Virus record (IMG/VR): IMGVR_UViG_3300008453_000586
Reading direction: 5' to 3' (one strand)
From: a virus
Lineage: Duplodnaviria; Heunggongvirae; Uroviricota; Caudoviricetes
Length of the DNA stretch: 17,907 nt
Every line of letters starts with the position of its first letter. The first letter of the stretch is position 1. The position numbers were made by a program, and so were the translations under genes. Under the pieces are notes generated by a model, which did no database searches, was not told the origin of the DNA, and saw only the letters and a program-made list of their open reading frames with translations. Of this stretch, positions 3,987 through 11,545 are shown in pieces.

Positions 3987-4029
3987 TTGCAAAAAAACTT
4001 GACTTGTATTAAAACTTTTAGTATATTTG
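3987..4029 (+). promoter_or_regulatory. Host-type promoter heading tRNA array 1
   Basis: CTTG (3998-4001), 20 nt, TATATTTG (4022-4029); 3987-4015 is identical to 8078-8106. Confidence 0.75.
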
Positions 4030-4222: not shown

Positions 4223-4303
4223 GCCGTGATTCCTGAGTGGTCAAAGGGAGCGGACTGCAAATCCGCTGCGAAAGCTTCGTGGGTTCGAATCCCTCTCACG
4301 GCT
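4223..4303 (+). tRNA. tRNA-Cys(GCA) with long variable arm
   Basis: GCCGTGA/TCACGGC acceptor, GCGGA-CTGCAAA-TCCGC anticodon arm, U73, GC-GAAA-GC variable hairpin. Confidence 0.85.
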
Positions 4304-4317
4304 CTATAAGAGAAAAA

Positions 4318-4711: not shown

Positions 4712-4720
4712 CAACCACTT

Positions 4721-4750
4721 GGCCGAGTGGTGGAATGGTAGACACGCGGG
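4721..4750 (+). pseudogene. 5' half of tRNA-Leu (direct repeat of 5214-5244)
   Basis: GGCCGAGTGGTGGAATGGTAGACACGCGGG matches the 5' end of tRNA-Leu(TAA) except a 1-nt indel; it stops in the anticodon stem. Confidence 0.8.
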
Positions 4751-4784
4751 ATGACTTTTCTATCATATCTACATATTTATTAGT

Positions 4785-5210
4785 ATGGAAGATATAGAAT
4801 TCATCAAAGTGTGTCAAGAATCTGACACCATGGCAAAGGCGGCTGCAACTCTAGGGTTGCATTTTAATACCTTTAAACGTAAAGCAGTTAAATTAGGTTG
4901 TTACGAACCAAATCAAGCTGGTAAAGGTATTACTAAAAAAGATAATGGTAATAAAATACCATTAAAAGAAATATTAGAGGGTAAACACCCTTATTACCAA
5001 ACTAATAAATTAAGAAAAAGATTAATTAGTGAAGGTTACAAAACTGGCGAATGTGAAATTTGTCATATTACTGAATGGAATGGTCAAGCAATTACAATTG
5101 AGCTAGACCACATAGACGGTAATAGAAACAACCATTATTTAGAAAACTTGAAAATGTTGTGTCCAAACTGTCACAGTCAGACACCAACGTTTAGAGGTAA
5201 AAAAAGATAG
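4785..5210 (+). CDS. HNH homing endonuclease
   Basis: CEIC...ELDHIDGNRNNHYLENLKMLCPNCHSQT zinc-binding HNH motif. Confidence 0.92.
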   Translation: MEDIEFIKVCQESDTMAKAAATLGLHFNTFKRKAVKLGCYEPNQAGKGITKKDNGNKIPLKEILEGKHPYYQTNKLRKRLISEGYKTGECEICHITEWNGQAITIELDHIDGNRNNHYLENLKMLCPNCHSQTPTFRGKKR

Positions 5211-5213
5211 AAT

Positions 5214-5299
5214 GGCCGAGTGGTGGAATTGGTAGACACGCGGGGTTTAAGCCCCCGTGCTCAGTAATGGGCGTGAGGGTTCGAGTCCCTCCTCGGCTA
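5214..5299 (+). tRNA. tRNA-Leu(TAA)
   Basis: CGGGG-TTTAAGC-CCCCG anticodon arm, long variable arm, A73. Confidence 0.92.
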
Positions 5300-5304
5300 C
5301 AAAT

Positions 5305-8077: not shown

Positions 8078-8120
8078 TTGCAAAAAAACTTGACTTGTAT
8101 TAAAACAGTTCGTATCTTTG
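8078..8120 (+). promoter_or_regulatory. Host-type promoter heading array 2
   Basis: CTTG (8089-8092), 20 nt, TATCTTTG (8113-8120); shares 29 identical nt with 3987-4015. Confidence 0.75.
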
Positions 8121-8180
8121 CAATGTAATTAAAAAAAGGCAACCTCCTTTCTAAGTTACAAACAACGTTAAAACAAAAAA

Positions 8181-8310
8181 GTCTAGGTCCGTAGGGCTGT
8201 GACGGTATGTGAGGAAAGTGACTACGGAGCAAACGTATAACTGTATGAAACAAAGCAGATGTCCTTCGCATTTAAATTGAAAGTGTAACATATTTCAGCC
8301 GTCACTACTT
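8181..8310 (+). ncRNA. Unassigned structured RNA
   Basis: GTAG..TGACGG/CCGTCACTAC, TGTGAGGA/TCCTTCGCA, alternative TCCGTAG/CTACGGA; GC-richer than flanks; no ORF. Confidence 0.4.
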
Positions 8311-8379
8311 TTAACGTAAAAAAAAAAAGAATTTTTAAAAAAAACAACATATTTATAAACAAACATAAAAAGAAATACT

Positions 8380-8469
8380 ATGAGAACTTTTGCTAACATA
8401 TTTGATTTTGCATTTTTTGCTGCCGAGGAGGATTGCTTCTCTGGAGGGTCGTGTGTTGCCAATAGTTAA
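8380..8469 (+). CDS. Putative attenuator leader peptide 2 (MRTFANIFDFAFFAAEEDCFSGGSCVANS)
   Basis: ATG...TAA, 29 aa; Phe x6, Ala x5, Glu x2, Asp x2; directly upstream of a terminator and array 2. Confidence 0.7.
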   Translation: MRTFANIFDFAFFAAEEDCFSGGSCVANS

Positions 8470-8497
8470 CAGTTAGAAATAACTCAACCATAGTAAC

Positions 8498-8528
8498 AAG
8501 CCTGACCCTAATAAGTCAGGCTTTTTTT
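8498..8528 (+). terminator. Intrinsic terminator/attenuator before array 2
   Basis: AAGCCTGAC-CCTAATAA-GTCAGGC-T7; 5' arm can alternatively pair with 8445-8454. Confidence 0.85.
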
Positions 8529-8541
8529 ATGTACAAAAATT

Positions 8542-8612
8542 GGAGCCATAGCTGAGGGGTTTAGCGCTGGCCTGAAGAGTCAGAGACACGGGGTCGACTC
8601 CCGTTGGTTCCA
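8542..8612 (+). tRNA. tRNA-Phe(GAA), G54 in T loop
   Basis: CTGGC-CTGAAGA-GTCAG anticodon arm; T arm ACGGG-GTCGACT-CCCGT. Confidence 0.82.
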
Positions 8613-8648
8613 CAAGAAAAAAAAAATTAAAAAAAAGTTCATTGAAAA

Positions 8649-8679
8649 TTTGGAGATTAAAAAATAAGTTGTATATTTG
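8649..8679 (+). promoter_or_regulatory. Internal host-type promoter in array 2
   Basis: TTTG (8649-8652), 19 nt, TATATTTG (8672-8679). Confidence 0.7.
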
Positions 8680-8693
8680 CAACGAAATTAAAA

Positions 8694-8766
8694 GGTACCT
8701 TAGCTCAGTTGGTAGAGCACTGCACTGAAGATGCAGGTGTCCCCAGTTCGAATCTGGGAGGTACCA
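8694..8766 (+). tRNA. tRNA-Phe(GAA)
   Basis: GGTACCT/AGGTACC acceptor; CTGCA-CTGAAGA-TGCAG anticodon arm. Confidence 0.93.
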
Positions 8767-8768
8767 CT

Positions 8769-8921
8769 AGGAATGTACGTTCAGCGGTCGAATTGGTCAT
8801 AAGAAATTATGGATGGTAAACAATTCGGGGGATGGGTTAAGTAATTAACTTGGGTAAAACATTTTCAGAACGACTCCCCTCATAAGGGAGAAGGTCACAG
8901 GTTCGAATCCTGTCATTCCTA
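8769..8921 (+). tRNA. tRNA(CAT) (elongator Met or Ile2) with an 85-nt D loop
   Basis: AGGAATG/CATTCCT acceptor, CGTTC/GAACG D stem, CTCCC-CTCATAA-GGGAG anticodon arm, canonical T arm. Confidence 0.75.
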
Positions 8922-8980
8922 CAAGGAGTAAGCCCCCGCGTAATCGCGATACGTGGGGAGTGCTGAAACGAAATAAGCAT

Positions 8981-9056
8981 GGCCCCGTCTTCTAAATTGG
9001 ACTAGGAAGCCACCCTTTCAAGGTGTGTAATGCGGGTTCGAATCCCGTCAGGGCTA
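8981..9056 (+). tRNA. tRNA-Glu(TTC)
   Basis: CACC-CTTTCAA-GGTG anticodon arm; canonical T arm; one acceptor mismatch. Confidence 0.85.
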
Positions 9057-9093
9057 CAATCTGGTTAAGATTCCAGTAATCAAAAATCTAAAT

Positions 9094-9166
9094 GGTCTAT
9101 TCGTCTAGTTGGTCAGGACGTGCCCCTTTCACGGGTAAAACACGGGTTCGAATCCCGTATAGACTA
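9094..9166 (+). tRNA. tRNA-Glu(TTC)
   Basis: GGTCTAT/ATAGACT acceptor; TGCCC-CTTTCAC-GGGTA anticodon arm. Confidence 0.92.
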
Positions 9167-9261
9167 CAATTAAGGAACGTGTGCAAATGCAATGGTCGGC
9201 ACAGTAACTAGGTGAAATAATAGACGTTGTTGACTTGAGAGTGGAACAGAAATTCTAATTT

Positions 9262-9341
9262 GGTCTATGGGGCTGCTTGGTGTGGCTACCTGACTGTCAC
9301 TCAGGAAAAACAGGTCGGTTCGAATCCGATATAGACCGCCA
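9262..9341 (+). tRNA. tRNA-Asp(GTC) with encoded CCA
   Basis: CCTGA-CTGTCAC-TCAGG anticodon arm, G73-CCA, 8-nt variable loop. Confidence 0.88.
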
Positions 9342-9350
9342 AATTAAATT

Positions 9351-9424
9351 CGAGGTAAGGTCCACTGGCGAAGGATGCACGCCTGTCACGCGTTGCGAAC
9401 TGGGTTCGAATCCCAGTATCTCGG
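9351..9424 (+). tRNA. tRNA-Asp(GTC)
   Basis: CGAGGTA/TATCTCG acceptor, ACGC-CTGTCAC-GCGT anticodon arm, G73. Confidence 0.85.
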
Positions 9425-9526
9425 CAAAAAAGGTGAGAGAAAAACTAAGTAAGTCTGCCAACCGAAAAGTGAAGTATTAAGGCCATTCTGCTCAATATAT
9501 GATGGCAGTTGTATTGAGAGTAGTTA

Positions 9527-9597
9527 AAGTGTATCGTCTAGGGGCTTAGGACGCTGGCGCGTAGCTGGAAACATTGGTTCGAAACCAATTGCACTTC
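9527..9597 (+). ncRNA. tRNA-Glu-like body lacking a 7-nt anticodon loop
   Basis: AAGTGTA/TGCACTT acceptor, Glu-type D arm GTCT..GGAC, CTGGC-GCGTA-GCTGG (5-nt loop), 4-nt variable loop, normal T arm. Confidence 0.65.
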
Positions 9598-9604
9598 TAA
9601 ATTT

Positions 9605-9678
9605 GGGGACTTAGCTCAGCTGGCTAGAGCGTCTGCCTTGCACGCAGAAGGTCGCGGGTTCGACTCCCGCAGTCTCCA
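9605..9678 (+). tRNA. tRNA-Ala(TGC)
   Basis: TCTGC-CTTGCAC-GCAGA anticodon arm; G3:U70. Confidence 0.93.
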
Positions 9679-9686
9679 CGATTGCT

Positions 9687-9810
9687 AACACGGTCGCTTC
9701 GTGTTGAAATTGTCAGATAACGTGCGGATAGAGGCAATCTCTGGAAAAAGAAGCACTGACTGGAAGGAAAGTCCGCAACTAAACCTGCTTACACTTTGGA
9801 ATGTAAAGTG
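9687..9810 (+). ncRNA. Unassigned structured RNA
   Basis: AACACG/CGTGTT, GTCA..GTGC/GCACTGAC, GCGGA/TCCGC and TTACA/TGTAA helices between two tRNAs. Confidence 0.35.
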
Positions 9811-9815
9811 ATTTT

Positions 9816-9937
9816 GGGCACGTGGTGTAATGGTAGCATGTTAAAAAACAAGTCATAACCTGACAAGGTTATCTTCAGCATTAAATGTTAATTTTCCTGT
9901 CACGAAAAAGATGTAGGTTCGAATCCTGCCGTGTCCG
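9816..9937 (+). tRNA. tRNA-Asp(GTC) with a 51-nt insertion at positions 26-29
   Basis: GGGCACG/CGTGTCC acceptor, G73, TTTTC-CTGTCAC-GAAAA anticodon arm; insert 9841-9891 carries ATAACCT-GACA-AGGTTAT-C-TTCAGCA. Confidence 0.75.
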
Positions 9938-9944
9938 CACAGAA

Positions 9945-10004
9945 ATGGTTAGTTGGTGTAACCGCTAATGGATTGACGAATCTATTAAGTTGCATCAACG
10001 CCAT
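9945..10004 (+). ncRNA. Long hairpin RNA between tRNAs
   Basis: GTTGGTGTAAC (9952-9962) pairs with GTTGCATCAAC (9989-9999); inner GATT-GACG-AATC hairpin. Confidence 0.35.
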
Positions 10005-10009
10005 AGGAA

Positions 10010-10082
10010 GGGGCCATAGTTTACTAGGCGAAAATAGTTGGCTTGCACCCAGCAGAACTCGGTTCGAATCCGAGTGGCTCCA
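10010..10082 (+). tRNA. tRNA-Ala(TGC)
   Basis: GTTGG-CTTGCAC-CCAGC anticodon arm; G3:U70. Confidence 0.88.
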
Positions 10083-10098
10083 CAAAAAAGAAAATAAA

Positions 10099-10129
10099 TT
10101 TGTTTAATTCAAATTAATGATTATCTTTG
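10099..10129 (+). promoter_or_regulatory. Host-type promoter
   Basis: TTTG, 19 nt, TATCTTTG. Confidence 0.65.
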
Positions 10130-10153
10130 TACCCTAATTTAAAAATATTAGAT

Positions 10154-10681
10154 ATGAAAATTAATAGAATTGAAGGTGTAAGTTATTCAGAACCAGGAGA
10201 AGGTGAATTTATTGTATGTGTTTTAGACCCATCAATAAATGGTGAGGAATATGTAAAGGATTTGAATGATAGTATTGAGGAATACAACAAAGATGTTGAA
10301 TTATTTGAAAGTAAGTTGCAAGAGTTTAAAGAATTGTACAAAACAAATCTTTCATTTGAAGCAATTACTGGTGTTGCGTTATTAAACGAACGTGAACCAA
10401 AATACCCATCAACGACACCGTTGGGTTTTAAAAATGTTCAAACAGCTTTTCCAGAAATTACGCTTGAAAGAGAAAGAAGAAAAACTGTTAACAAAGAAAA
10501 TAGGTTAGTTTATGATACGTTTATAAATGAAGCTAGAGAAAATGTTAAAAGAGAAATTGAACCATTCAAACAAGCTTTAATCGCTAAATGGCCTAAGTTT
10601 AAAAGATGGGCGGCTAGTGATTGGGGTAGAACAATTTGGTACAAATTTGAATTAACAACTTTTAAATATGTGTCAGAATAA
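10154..10681 (+). CDS. Hypothetical protein, partly coiled-coil
   Basis: ATG at 10154 downstream of the promoter; no recognisable motif. Confidence 0.7.
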   Translation: MKINRIEGVSYSEPGEGEFIVCVLDPSINGEEYVKDLNDSIEEYNKDVELFESKLQEFKELYKTNLSFEAITGVALLNEREPKYPSTTPLGFKNVQTAFPEITLERERRKTVNKENRLVYDTFINEARENVKREIEPFKQALIAKWPKFKRWAASDWGRTIWYKFELTTFKYVSE

Positions 10682-10684
10682 AAT

Positions 10685-10756
10685 GGGGTCATAGCTCAAC
10701 GGCTGAGCGCTTCCCTTGCACGGAAGAGGATGTGGGTTCGAATCTCATTGGCTCCA
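10685..10756 (+). tRNA. tRNA-Ala(TGC)
   Basis: CTTCC-CTTGCAC-GGAAG anticodon arm; G3:U70. Confidence 0.9.
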
Positions 10757-10777
10757 CTAAATTTAAAATTAAAAATC

Positions 10778-11545
10778 ATGAAAACTAGAATTGCCCCATC
10801 ACCAACGGGCAAATTTCATTTAGGGACATTACGTACTGCTTTATTTAACTATTTGTTAAGTAAATCAAACAATGGTGTTTTTATCCTAAGAATAGACGAT
10901 ACAGATTTGTCTAGGAACAACGATTCAGATATAGACTTCATTCATCAACAAATGAAACATTTTGGTTTAGACTATGATGTAACATTTAACCAAAGCAGCA
11001 GACTTGATAGATACAAACAAGTTGCAACTGCCATAGGGTTCAAAAAAGATGATGGAACGTTAAACGTAAACATGGGTGACTATGATATGGTTATTCTTAG
11101 AGATAACGGTTATCCAACCTATAACTTCGCATCAATATTAGATGACTATGATTATGACATTACTGACATTATTAGAGGTGTAGACCATATTACCAACTTA
11201 CCAAAGCAACAAACGTTGTGGGATATGATTTGCAATGTATATGGTCAAAAAAAATTTCCAAATGTACAACACGCTGGGTTATTGTTTTATAAAGGTGCCA
11301 AATTATCTAAAAGAACTGGTAACTGTACTACTGATGATTATAATGATTATGACGTTGATGCGTTACTAAATTGGTTATTCAAATTTGGTTGGTCACATCC
11401 TAACGCTAATTTTGACAAAGATTTTCCAATTTTAAAGATGGGTGATATGATAAAACACTTTATAGATGGTCATATTGTAAAGTCGAATTCAAGTATTGAC
11501 ATAAACAAATTAATATGGTTAAATAAAAAACATAAAACAAAATAA
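10778..11545 (+). CDS. Minimal glutamyl-tRNA synthetase-like protein (catalytic domain only; GluRS/GluQ family)
   Basis: RIAPSPTG..HLGT (HIGH), LRIDDTD, IIRGVDH, KLSKR (KMSKS), LLNWLFKFGWS; 255 aa with no anticodon-binding domain and no Cys/Zn insertion. Confidence 0.88.
   Translation: MKTRIAPSPTGKFHLGTLRTALFNYLLSKSNNGVFILRIDDTDLSRNNDSDIDFIHQQMKHFGLDYDVTFNQSSRLDRYKQVATAIGFKKDDGTLNVNMGDYDMVILRDNGYPTYNFASILDDYDYDITDIIRGVDHITNLPKQQTLWDMICNVYGQKKFPNVQHAGLLFYKGAKLSKRTGNCTTDDYNDYDVDALLNWLFKFGWSHPNANFDKDFPILKMGDMIKHFIDGHIVKSNSSIDINKLIWLNKKHKTK

Follow-up and report, generated by a model that had tools for sequence, protein, structure and literature searches.

The usual explanations for phage tRNA genes are that they match the codon usage of the phage or that they help it to evade defences directed at tRNAs, while little is known, in general, about how their expression is controlled. 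This question is raised by a locus in the IMG/VR record IMGVR_UViG_3300008453_000586 (Caudoviricetes), a stretch of 17,907 nucleotides (nt) which as a whole will be referred to as the window, where a 29-codon open reading frame (ORF) and an intrinsic terminator precede an array of tRNA genes. What does such a mini-ORF do in front of tRNAs? From comparisons among related phages, we consider it highly probable that ORF and terminator together form a ribosome-mediated (leader-peptide) transcription attenuator controlling a phage tRNA operon. The reasons are four: the cassette is conserved and the composition of its leader tracks the tRNA set in four different classes; there is co-variation between antiterminator and terminator arm, which persists when only the class of the window unit is considered; the first tRNA lies too near the U-tract to have a promoter of its own; and, in a folding snapshot, the 5' arm of the terminator is sequestered only with a ribosome on the control codons. 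The attenuator interpretation had already been put forward in a sequence-only reading of this locus, and the comparative evidence (four classes, co-variation, spacing, and folding) now supports it.

The leader ORF and the tRNAs behind it

The elements that would take part in the switch are the following:

8380-8469, + strand, leader ORF of 29 codons plus a TAA stop, defined by its translation
8389-8439, + strand, control codons 4-20 (Phe x6, Ala x4, Glu x2, Asp x2)
8443-8458, + strand, antiterminator strand (codons 22-27), with a partner at about 8493-8509 (terminator 5' arm plus first loop bases)
8498-8530, + strand, intrinsic terminator (hairpin 8498-8523, U-tract 8524-8530)
8542-8613, + strand, tRNA-Phe(GAA) number 1 (ARAGORN and Rfam), which starts 12 nt past the U-tract

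The translation of the ORF, with its core of Phe, Asp, Ala and Glu, is exactly the one that the sequence-only reading had reported, and the layout described there is also recovered: the control codons occupy positions ~4-20, and codons 22-27 carry the antiterminator. Thirteen of the 18 residues at codons 2-19 belong to the set {F,A,E,D}. In 1,349 control ORFs (others of 20-40 codons, drawn from the same set of loci) the share of these residues has a mean of 0.14, a 99th percentile of 0.39, and a maximum of 0.61, and the content of the window leader exceeds that of every one of them.

In related phages, uncultured and of Bacteroidota type, the cassette consists of a promoter, a mini-ORF, a terminator, and a tRNA array, and four classes of it are found:

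Class A, core like ILVLCLCVLVL, downstream Cys, Val, and Leu tRNAs
Class B (the window unit), core like NIFDFAFFAAEED, downstream Phe, Glu, Asp, and Ala tRNAs
Class C, core like TYTYYQPKTQGGKTP, downstream Pro, Gln, Tyr, Thr, Gly, and Lys tRNAs
Class D, core like NINNMINSINWRHNSRS, downstream Trp, Ser, His, Ile, Met, Asn, and Arg tRNAs

These relatives were reached by several routes. The 92-kb relative G001 (80-92% identical to the window) served as the reference at genome scale, and contig L002, where both window leaders are present in diverged form, was reached via a neighbouring protein. The shared promoter and 5' untranslated region (UTR) word, used as a query, returned 28 viral loci; a terminator pattern returned further loci, including the near-identical relative L034, and a class-specific pattern yielded 29 metagenome loci. 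A degenerate class-B pattern applied to viral contigs was discarded as too unspecific, with one real unit (L060) among at least 115 matches, and the collection of cultured phages held no match to either leader region of the window. A unit finder whose only criteria were a TAnnTTTGC box, an ATG ORF of 18-45 codons, and a hairpin with a T-run returned 36 units, and all 36 could be assigned to the four peptide classes.

At the level of classes, leaders and arrays correspond for 20 of 20 amino acids: each residue has its highest frequency in the leaders of the class whose arrays carry its tRNAs (29 distinct leaders). When the amino-acid labels were permuted, a test of the kind that the sequence-only reading had asked for, none of 200,000 trials reached the observed match. 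All four cassettes, each with its matching array, occur together in G001. For class B, 28 distinct units were found, and their leaders represent 18 peptide variants. Of the 131 tRNAs that ARAGORN calls within 1.6 kb, 107 are specific for Phe, Glu, Asp, or Ala, and 23 of 27 units have tRNA-Phe in first place. The tally proposed earlier for the window array (Phe x2, Glu x2, Asp x3, Ala x3, and one tRNA with a CAT anticodon) is right according to ARAGORN, Rfam, and Infernal.

The leader is also conserved as an ORF in the 18 class-B peptide variants. Start and stop codons are kept throughout, indels in the control part are multiples of three among relatives, and third codon positions vary most (133 extra states versus 78 and 95), with frequent synonymous changes in the control codons, such as TTT/TTC, GCA/GCG/GCT, and GAG/GAA. 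When a control residue is replaced, considering all classes, the new one is again a member of the set in 38 of 78 replacements versus 20.5 expected. This pattern of variation suggests that the leader is translated.

Pairing, folding, and the proposed switch

The terminator hairpin holds a 9-base-pair stem with five G-C pairs and an 8-nt loop followed by a run of seven T (-13.5 kcal/mol). Its 5' arm faces a competing partner within the leader, as the sequence-only reading had noticed: positions 8445-8454 (AGGGUCGUGU) and 8500-8509 (GCCUGACCCU) do form 9 of 10 possible pairs, including two G-U pairs. In 27 of 29 units, the stretch that pairs best with the terminator 5' arm is located at codons ~19-27, and the distance from the stop codon to the terminator is held at 23-34 nt across units. 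In all 29 units the antiterminator window pairs better with its own terminator arm than with foreign ones (-11.7 versus -8.2 kcal/mol). Among 13 representative arms, none of 100,000 permutations reached the observed match, and in class B alone, with 11 distinct arms, 23 of 100,000 did. Both strands have even undergone matched indels, with antiterminator and arm reading AGGGTC/GACCCT in the window, AGGTC/GACCT in L002, and AGGTCGAG/CTCGACCT in L005.

The dependence on the ribosome was modelled with a folding snapshot in which the transcript ends at the terminator loop, before the 3' arm exists, and the ribosome is positioned by its A site. This stage was chosen because equilibrium folding with the complete terminator does not discriminate between ribosome positions. 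In the window unit, the paired share of the 5' arm is ~60% with the ribosome at codons 1-15, falls to ~0% between codon 18 and the stop, and amounts to 35% in free RNA, where part of the control-codon stretch is predicted to pair with the antiterminator strand and thus to act as an anti-antiterminator. The antiterminated fold costs 0.3-2.2 kcal/mol over the terminated one for ribosomes at codons 6-13, 8-14 kcal/mol at codons 16-25, and 6.5 kcal/mol without a ribosome. In this model, the costs follow the three-state logic of the trp attenuator, and antiterminator and terminator exclude each other in silico depending on the position of the ribosome. Together with the conserved ORF, the matching codon enrichment, and the intrinsic terminator ahead of the tRNA genes, this belongs to the features expected of an attenuator.

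Upstream of the leader, the unit is organized as follows:

8090-8120, + strand, unit promoter: TTGACT, 17 nt, and the -7 box TATCTTTG at 8113-8120
8135-8330, + strand, structured non-coding RNA insert of ~200 nt between promoter and leader, absent from L034
8348-8379, + strand, A-rich 5' UTR carrying CATATTTATAAAC, a motif found ahead of the other leaders too

The promoter is of the same type as that of leader 1, the other leader of the window (4000-4029), and is kept in L034 and in the other cassettes. No Shine-Dalgarno sequence is found in 8348-8379. The insert falls within the 5' UTR and is probably no part of the switch itself.

According to the proposed mechanism, transcription would start from the promoter at 8090-8120, so that in the phage of the window the inserted small RNA would be transcribed first, and a ribosome would then translate the 29-codon leader. 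If decoding of the Phe, Ala, Glu, and Asp codons is fast, the ribosome would be found on codons 18-29, covering the antiterminator at 8443-8458; the hairpin at 8498-8523 would form, and RNA polymerase would stop at the U-tract. If the cognate charged tRNAs are scarce, the ribosome would linger on codons 4-16, leaving the antiterminator strand free to capture the emerging 5' arm of the terminator, and the polymerase would continue into tRNA-Phe and the genes behind it. Without a ribosome, the control-codon stretch would pair with the antiterminator strand and termination would prevail. The net effect would be a negative feedback on the supply of those same tRNAs; both the direction of the response to charged tRNA and its size are inferred here.

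This design recalls the leader attenuators of enterobacterial amino-acid operons (trpL, hisL, leuL, thrL, and pheL, as well as the multivalent leaders of ilvGMEDA and thr). As in those systems, a short ORF rich in regulatory codons is combined with an intrinsic terminator, the antiterminator overlaps the 5' arm of the terminator, and the control-codon stretch serves as anti-antiterminator; like the ilv leader, a single leader would sense several amino acids. The pheM leader of the Escherichia coli pheST operon, in which Phe codons sense the supply of Phe-tRNA, offers another parallel, being a codon-based leader that attenuates a gene of the translation apparatus, although pheM controls a synthetase instead of tRNA genes and senses a single amino acid. 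The pheL attenuator is treated in PMC3082878. In contrast to the enterobacterial attenuators, the window leader would control tRNAs rather than biosynthetic enzymes and respond to four amino acids at once, belongs to a phage of a phylum mostly without Shine-Dalgarno sites, shows no relation to them in sequence or in Rfam, and is one of four such leaders that jointly cover all 20 amino acids. In a search of the literature for which papers in subscription journals were mostly out of reach, no publication was found in which tRNA genes are attenuated through a leader peptide.

If the attenuator operates as proposed, tRNA supply would receive direct feedback from decoding speed, a textbook mechanism would gain a further class of targets as well as a new setting in phages of Bacteroidota type, and the leaders would provide a simple and testable read-out of the tRNAs that a phage expects to run short. 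A broader and more tentative idea, which we rate at somewhat under an even chance, is that this phage group holds a four-channel sensor of decoding capacity, in which four multivalent leaders attend to all 20 amino acids and each gates its own tRNA block. The Phe/Ala/Glu/Asp unit of the window would be one of these channels, and an infected cell with a tRNA pool drained by host shut-off, by starvation, or by defence nucleases that cleave tRNAs would express only those phage tRNAs that it is short of.

Extent of control and alternative explanations

How far the control by the leader reaches depends on the promoters within and behind the array:

8649-8679, + strand, internal host-type promoter: TTTG, 19 nt, TATATTTG, fitting TTTG-N19-TAnnTTTG and kept in L034
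8694-10083, + strand, remainder of the array: Phe, CAT tRNA with insert, Glu x2, Asp x2, a doubtful one, Ala, Asp with insert, Ala
8542 and 8694 (Phe), 9094 (Glu), 9262 and 9351 (Asp), 9605, 10010, and 10685 (Ala), + strand, tRNAs on which ARAGORN and Rfam agree
10099-10129, + strand, further promoter: TTTG, 19 nt, TATCTTTG, conserved in L002

The first tRNA gene is the one most closely tied to the leader. Since the gap after the U-tract is too short for a promoter, tRNA-Phe 8542-8613, whose acceptor stem shows a compensatory change in L034, would be transcribable by read-through only, and it belongs to the same transcription unit as the leader. The gap between U-tract and first tRNA measures 3-16 nt in classes A-C, and many arrays lack any further -7 box. 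The remainder of the window array is preceded by the conserved promoter-like site at 8649-8679, which the sequence-only reading had named as a possible bypass; this caveat stands. The span 8340-10756 of that reading includes another promoter, at 10099-10129, which makes it probable that the last tRNA-Ala is not in the unit of the leader. This promoter precedes an ORF (10145-10681), tRNA-Ala 10685-10757, and a gene for a protein similar to glutamyl-tRNA synthetase (GluRS), which probably form a separate transcription unit.

Some array members required a closer look. ARAGORN calls the tRNA at 8981-9057 SeC(tca), an identity that was rejected because the Infernal alignment to the tRNA model places CUUUCAA in the anticodon loop, giving the Glu anticodon UUC. 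Infernal recognizes 9816-9937 as a tRNA with a 64-nt insert, whose GTC (Asp) anticodon was read by eye from the sequence, and 8769-8924 shows a CAU anticodon loop plus an insert at 26.8 bits, under the Rfam threshold. The Thr(cgt) called by ARAGORN at 9527-9597 has no Rfam support and is regarded as a doubtful tRNA-like sequence. The inserts in 8769-8924 and 9816-9937 (~64-75 nt) sit between the D arm and the anticodon stem, a position that differs from the usual intron site, and both are kept in L034 and L174.

Several observations weigh against the attenuator and have to be set beside the evidence in its favour. Regarding the leader, the preference for replacements within the residue set is not significant in class B alone (4 of 13); the control codons sample 63 of 73 anticodons, no more than with redrawn synonymous codons, so that codon tuning to isoacceptors was rejected as additional evidence; some array tRNAs (CAT, Pro, His) have no matching leader codon; and the earlier caveat that TTT and TTA codons are common in AT-rich DNA continues to apply. 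Regarding the fold, the antiterminator duplex of the window does not by itself go beyond shuffled sequences (z -1.35, p 0.09), so its support comes from the relatives. Equilibrium folding of the whole terminator with ribosome masks favours termination in most units wherever the ribosome sits, and the switch would therefore have to be kinetic. In classes C and D, the ORF extends ~9 codons beyond the antiterminator, which is thus left uncovered once the ribosome has reached the stop codon; the tail would in these classes tune timing. Regarding the extent of control, the promoter at 8649-8679 may bypass the attenuator for everything downstream, in which case tight control in the phage of the window may be limited to tRNA-Phe 8542-8613, and in L060 a promoter lies directly behind the terminator.

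In the most probable of the alternatives, the terminator is fixed and works as a leaky stop or insulator behind a short transcript, either a small RNA or the mRNA of a micro-protein, with the tRNAs expressed from constitutive read-through and internal promoters and the peptide playing a role of its own. Internal promoters are present both in the window array and in L060, the terminator is thermodynamically dominant, and the leader region folds more stably than its shuffles (z -2.95), as would be expected for a small RNA. Nevertheless, we regard this explanation as unlikely, since it does not account for four unrelated peptide classes that mirror their own tRNA sets for all 20 amino acids, for the swaps of residues within each set, or for the co-variation between the 3' part of the ORF and the terminator arm.

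Read-through could also be controlled by a factor, with an incidental ORF, if an antitermination protein or RNA of the phage or the host (N/nut-, Q-, put-like, or of the rrn boxA type) acted on the conserved 5' UTR and hairpin. In many cassettes the promoter is indeed followed closely by the motif CATATTTATTAA and a boxB-like hairpin (GGGG-loop-CCC). The hairpin is, however, absent from the window unit and many others (such as L003, L005, L006, and L014), no boxA word occurs within 8120-8530, and the match in composition would be left unexplained, all of which makes a factor of this kind quite improbable.

The logic of a T-box, where the status of the tRNA decides between terminator and antiterminator ahead of translation-related genes, would fit, and the leader codons, exposed in A/U-rich RNA, could pair with the anticodons of uncharged tRNAs; but a T-box binds the tRNA directly and needs no translation, whereas translation is indicated by the presence of a start and a stop codon, by indels that preserve the frame, by the fixed spacing of 23-34 nt between stop and terminator, and by the excess of variation at third positions, and with neither Stem I, specifier loop, nor T-box sequence in the window, and no match of the leader to RF00230 or to another Rfam family even with E values up to 5 admitted, direct tRNA sensing is the least credible of the three. 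In the window as a whole, Rfam finds no known leader, T-box, or riboswitch, its matches being limited to tRNAs and to small RNAs at chance level.

Other features of the window and its relatives

Some relatives exhibit variations on the cassette. At L186:1139-3305, a variant leader with the same start (MRTLTNI) carries control residues rich in Leu, Cys, Glu, and Tyr, and the array behind it consists of Glu, Met, Tyr, Leu, Cys, and Leu tRNAs, which would possibly represent a natural re-targeting of the sensor. In class D (L022:7663-7836, on the - strand, and also L015, L016, L019, L021, L026, and L029), a gene for a conserved protein of 56-59 residues without a significant Pfam match is located between the terminator and the first tRNA; the class-D leader would control this gene too.

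Three tRNA arrays have been identified in the window by ARAGORN and Rfam, and the window also encodes an RlaP-type nucleotidyltransferase, an HNH endonuclease, and the GluRS-like protein mentioned above. Its promoters present the TTG/TAnnTTTG form and two of its proteins hold type-IX secretion sorting tails; as judged from its sequence, the source is a large uncultured phage with a Bacteroidota-type host.

Every class-A array opens with a tRNA like that at 4223-4304, which has a GCA (Cys) anticodon, 82 nt, and a long variable arm, and whose charging identity is uncertain because of this class II shape. Further along, the HNH endonuclease gene (4785-5210, within 4717-5300) lies between a duplicated 5' fragment of tRNA-Leu (~4721-4752) and a complete tRNA-Leu (5214), an arrangement that is the same in L002.

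The third array (14413-15494, in the region 14210-15494) has a strong promoter and neither a leader ORF nor a terminator. Its first tRNA (14413-14490) is odd, and the L002 counterpart shows a UUA (ochre suppressor) anticodon. In the same region, 15294-15414 gives a weak match to YrlA (Y RNA-like), with 37.8 bits versus a gathering score of 69.

The GluRS-like gene (10778-11545), at the end of the Glu/Asp tRNA block, encodes a catalytic core of 255 residues that lacks the anticodon-binding domain. This architecture resembles that of GluQRS, yet the best score, under the cut-off, corresponds to bacterial GluRS.

Lastly, the structured RNA inserted upstream of the class-B leader (8135-8330) is present in Flavobacterium phage FpV4 and in 16 viral contigs, often adjoining tRNAs. 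Its core of ~140 nt (8175-8312), which belongs to no Rfam family, is found at L001:1501-1611 and in L154-L169. The conserved loops include GAGGAAAGTGA and ACTGTATGAAA..AGCAGATGTCC, and the helices show compensation among relatives, with CCGTAG/CTACGG replaced by CCATTC/GAATGG or GCAATC/GGTTGC.

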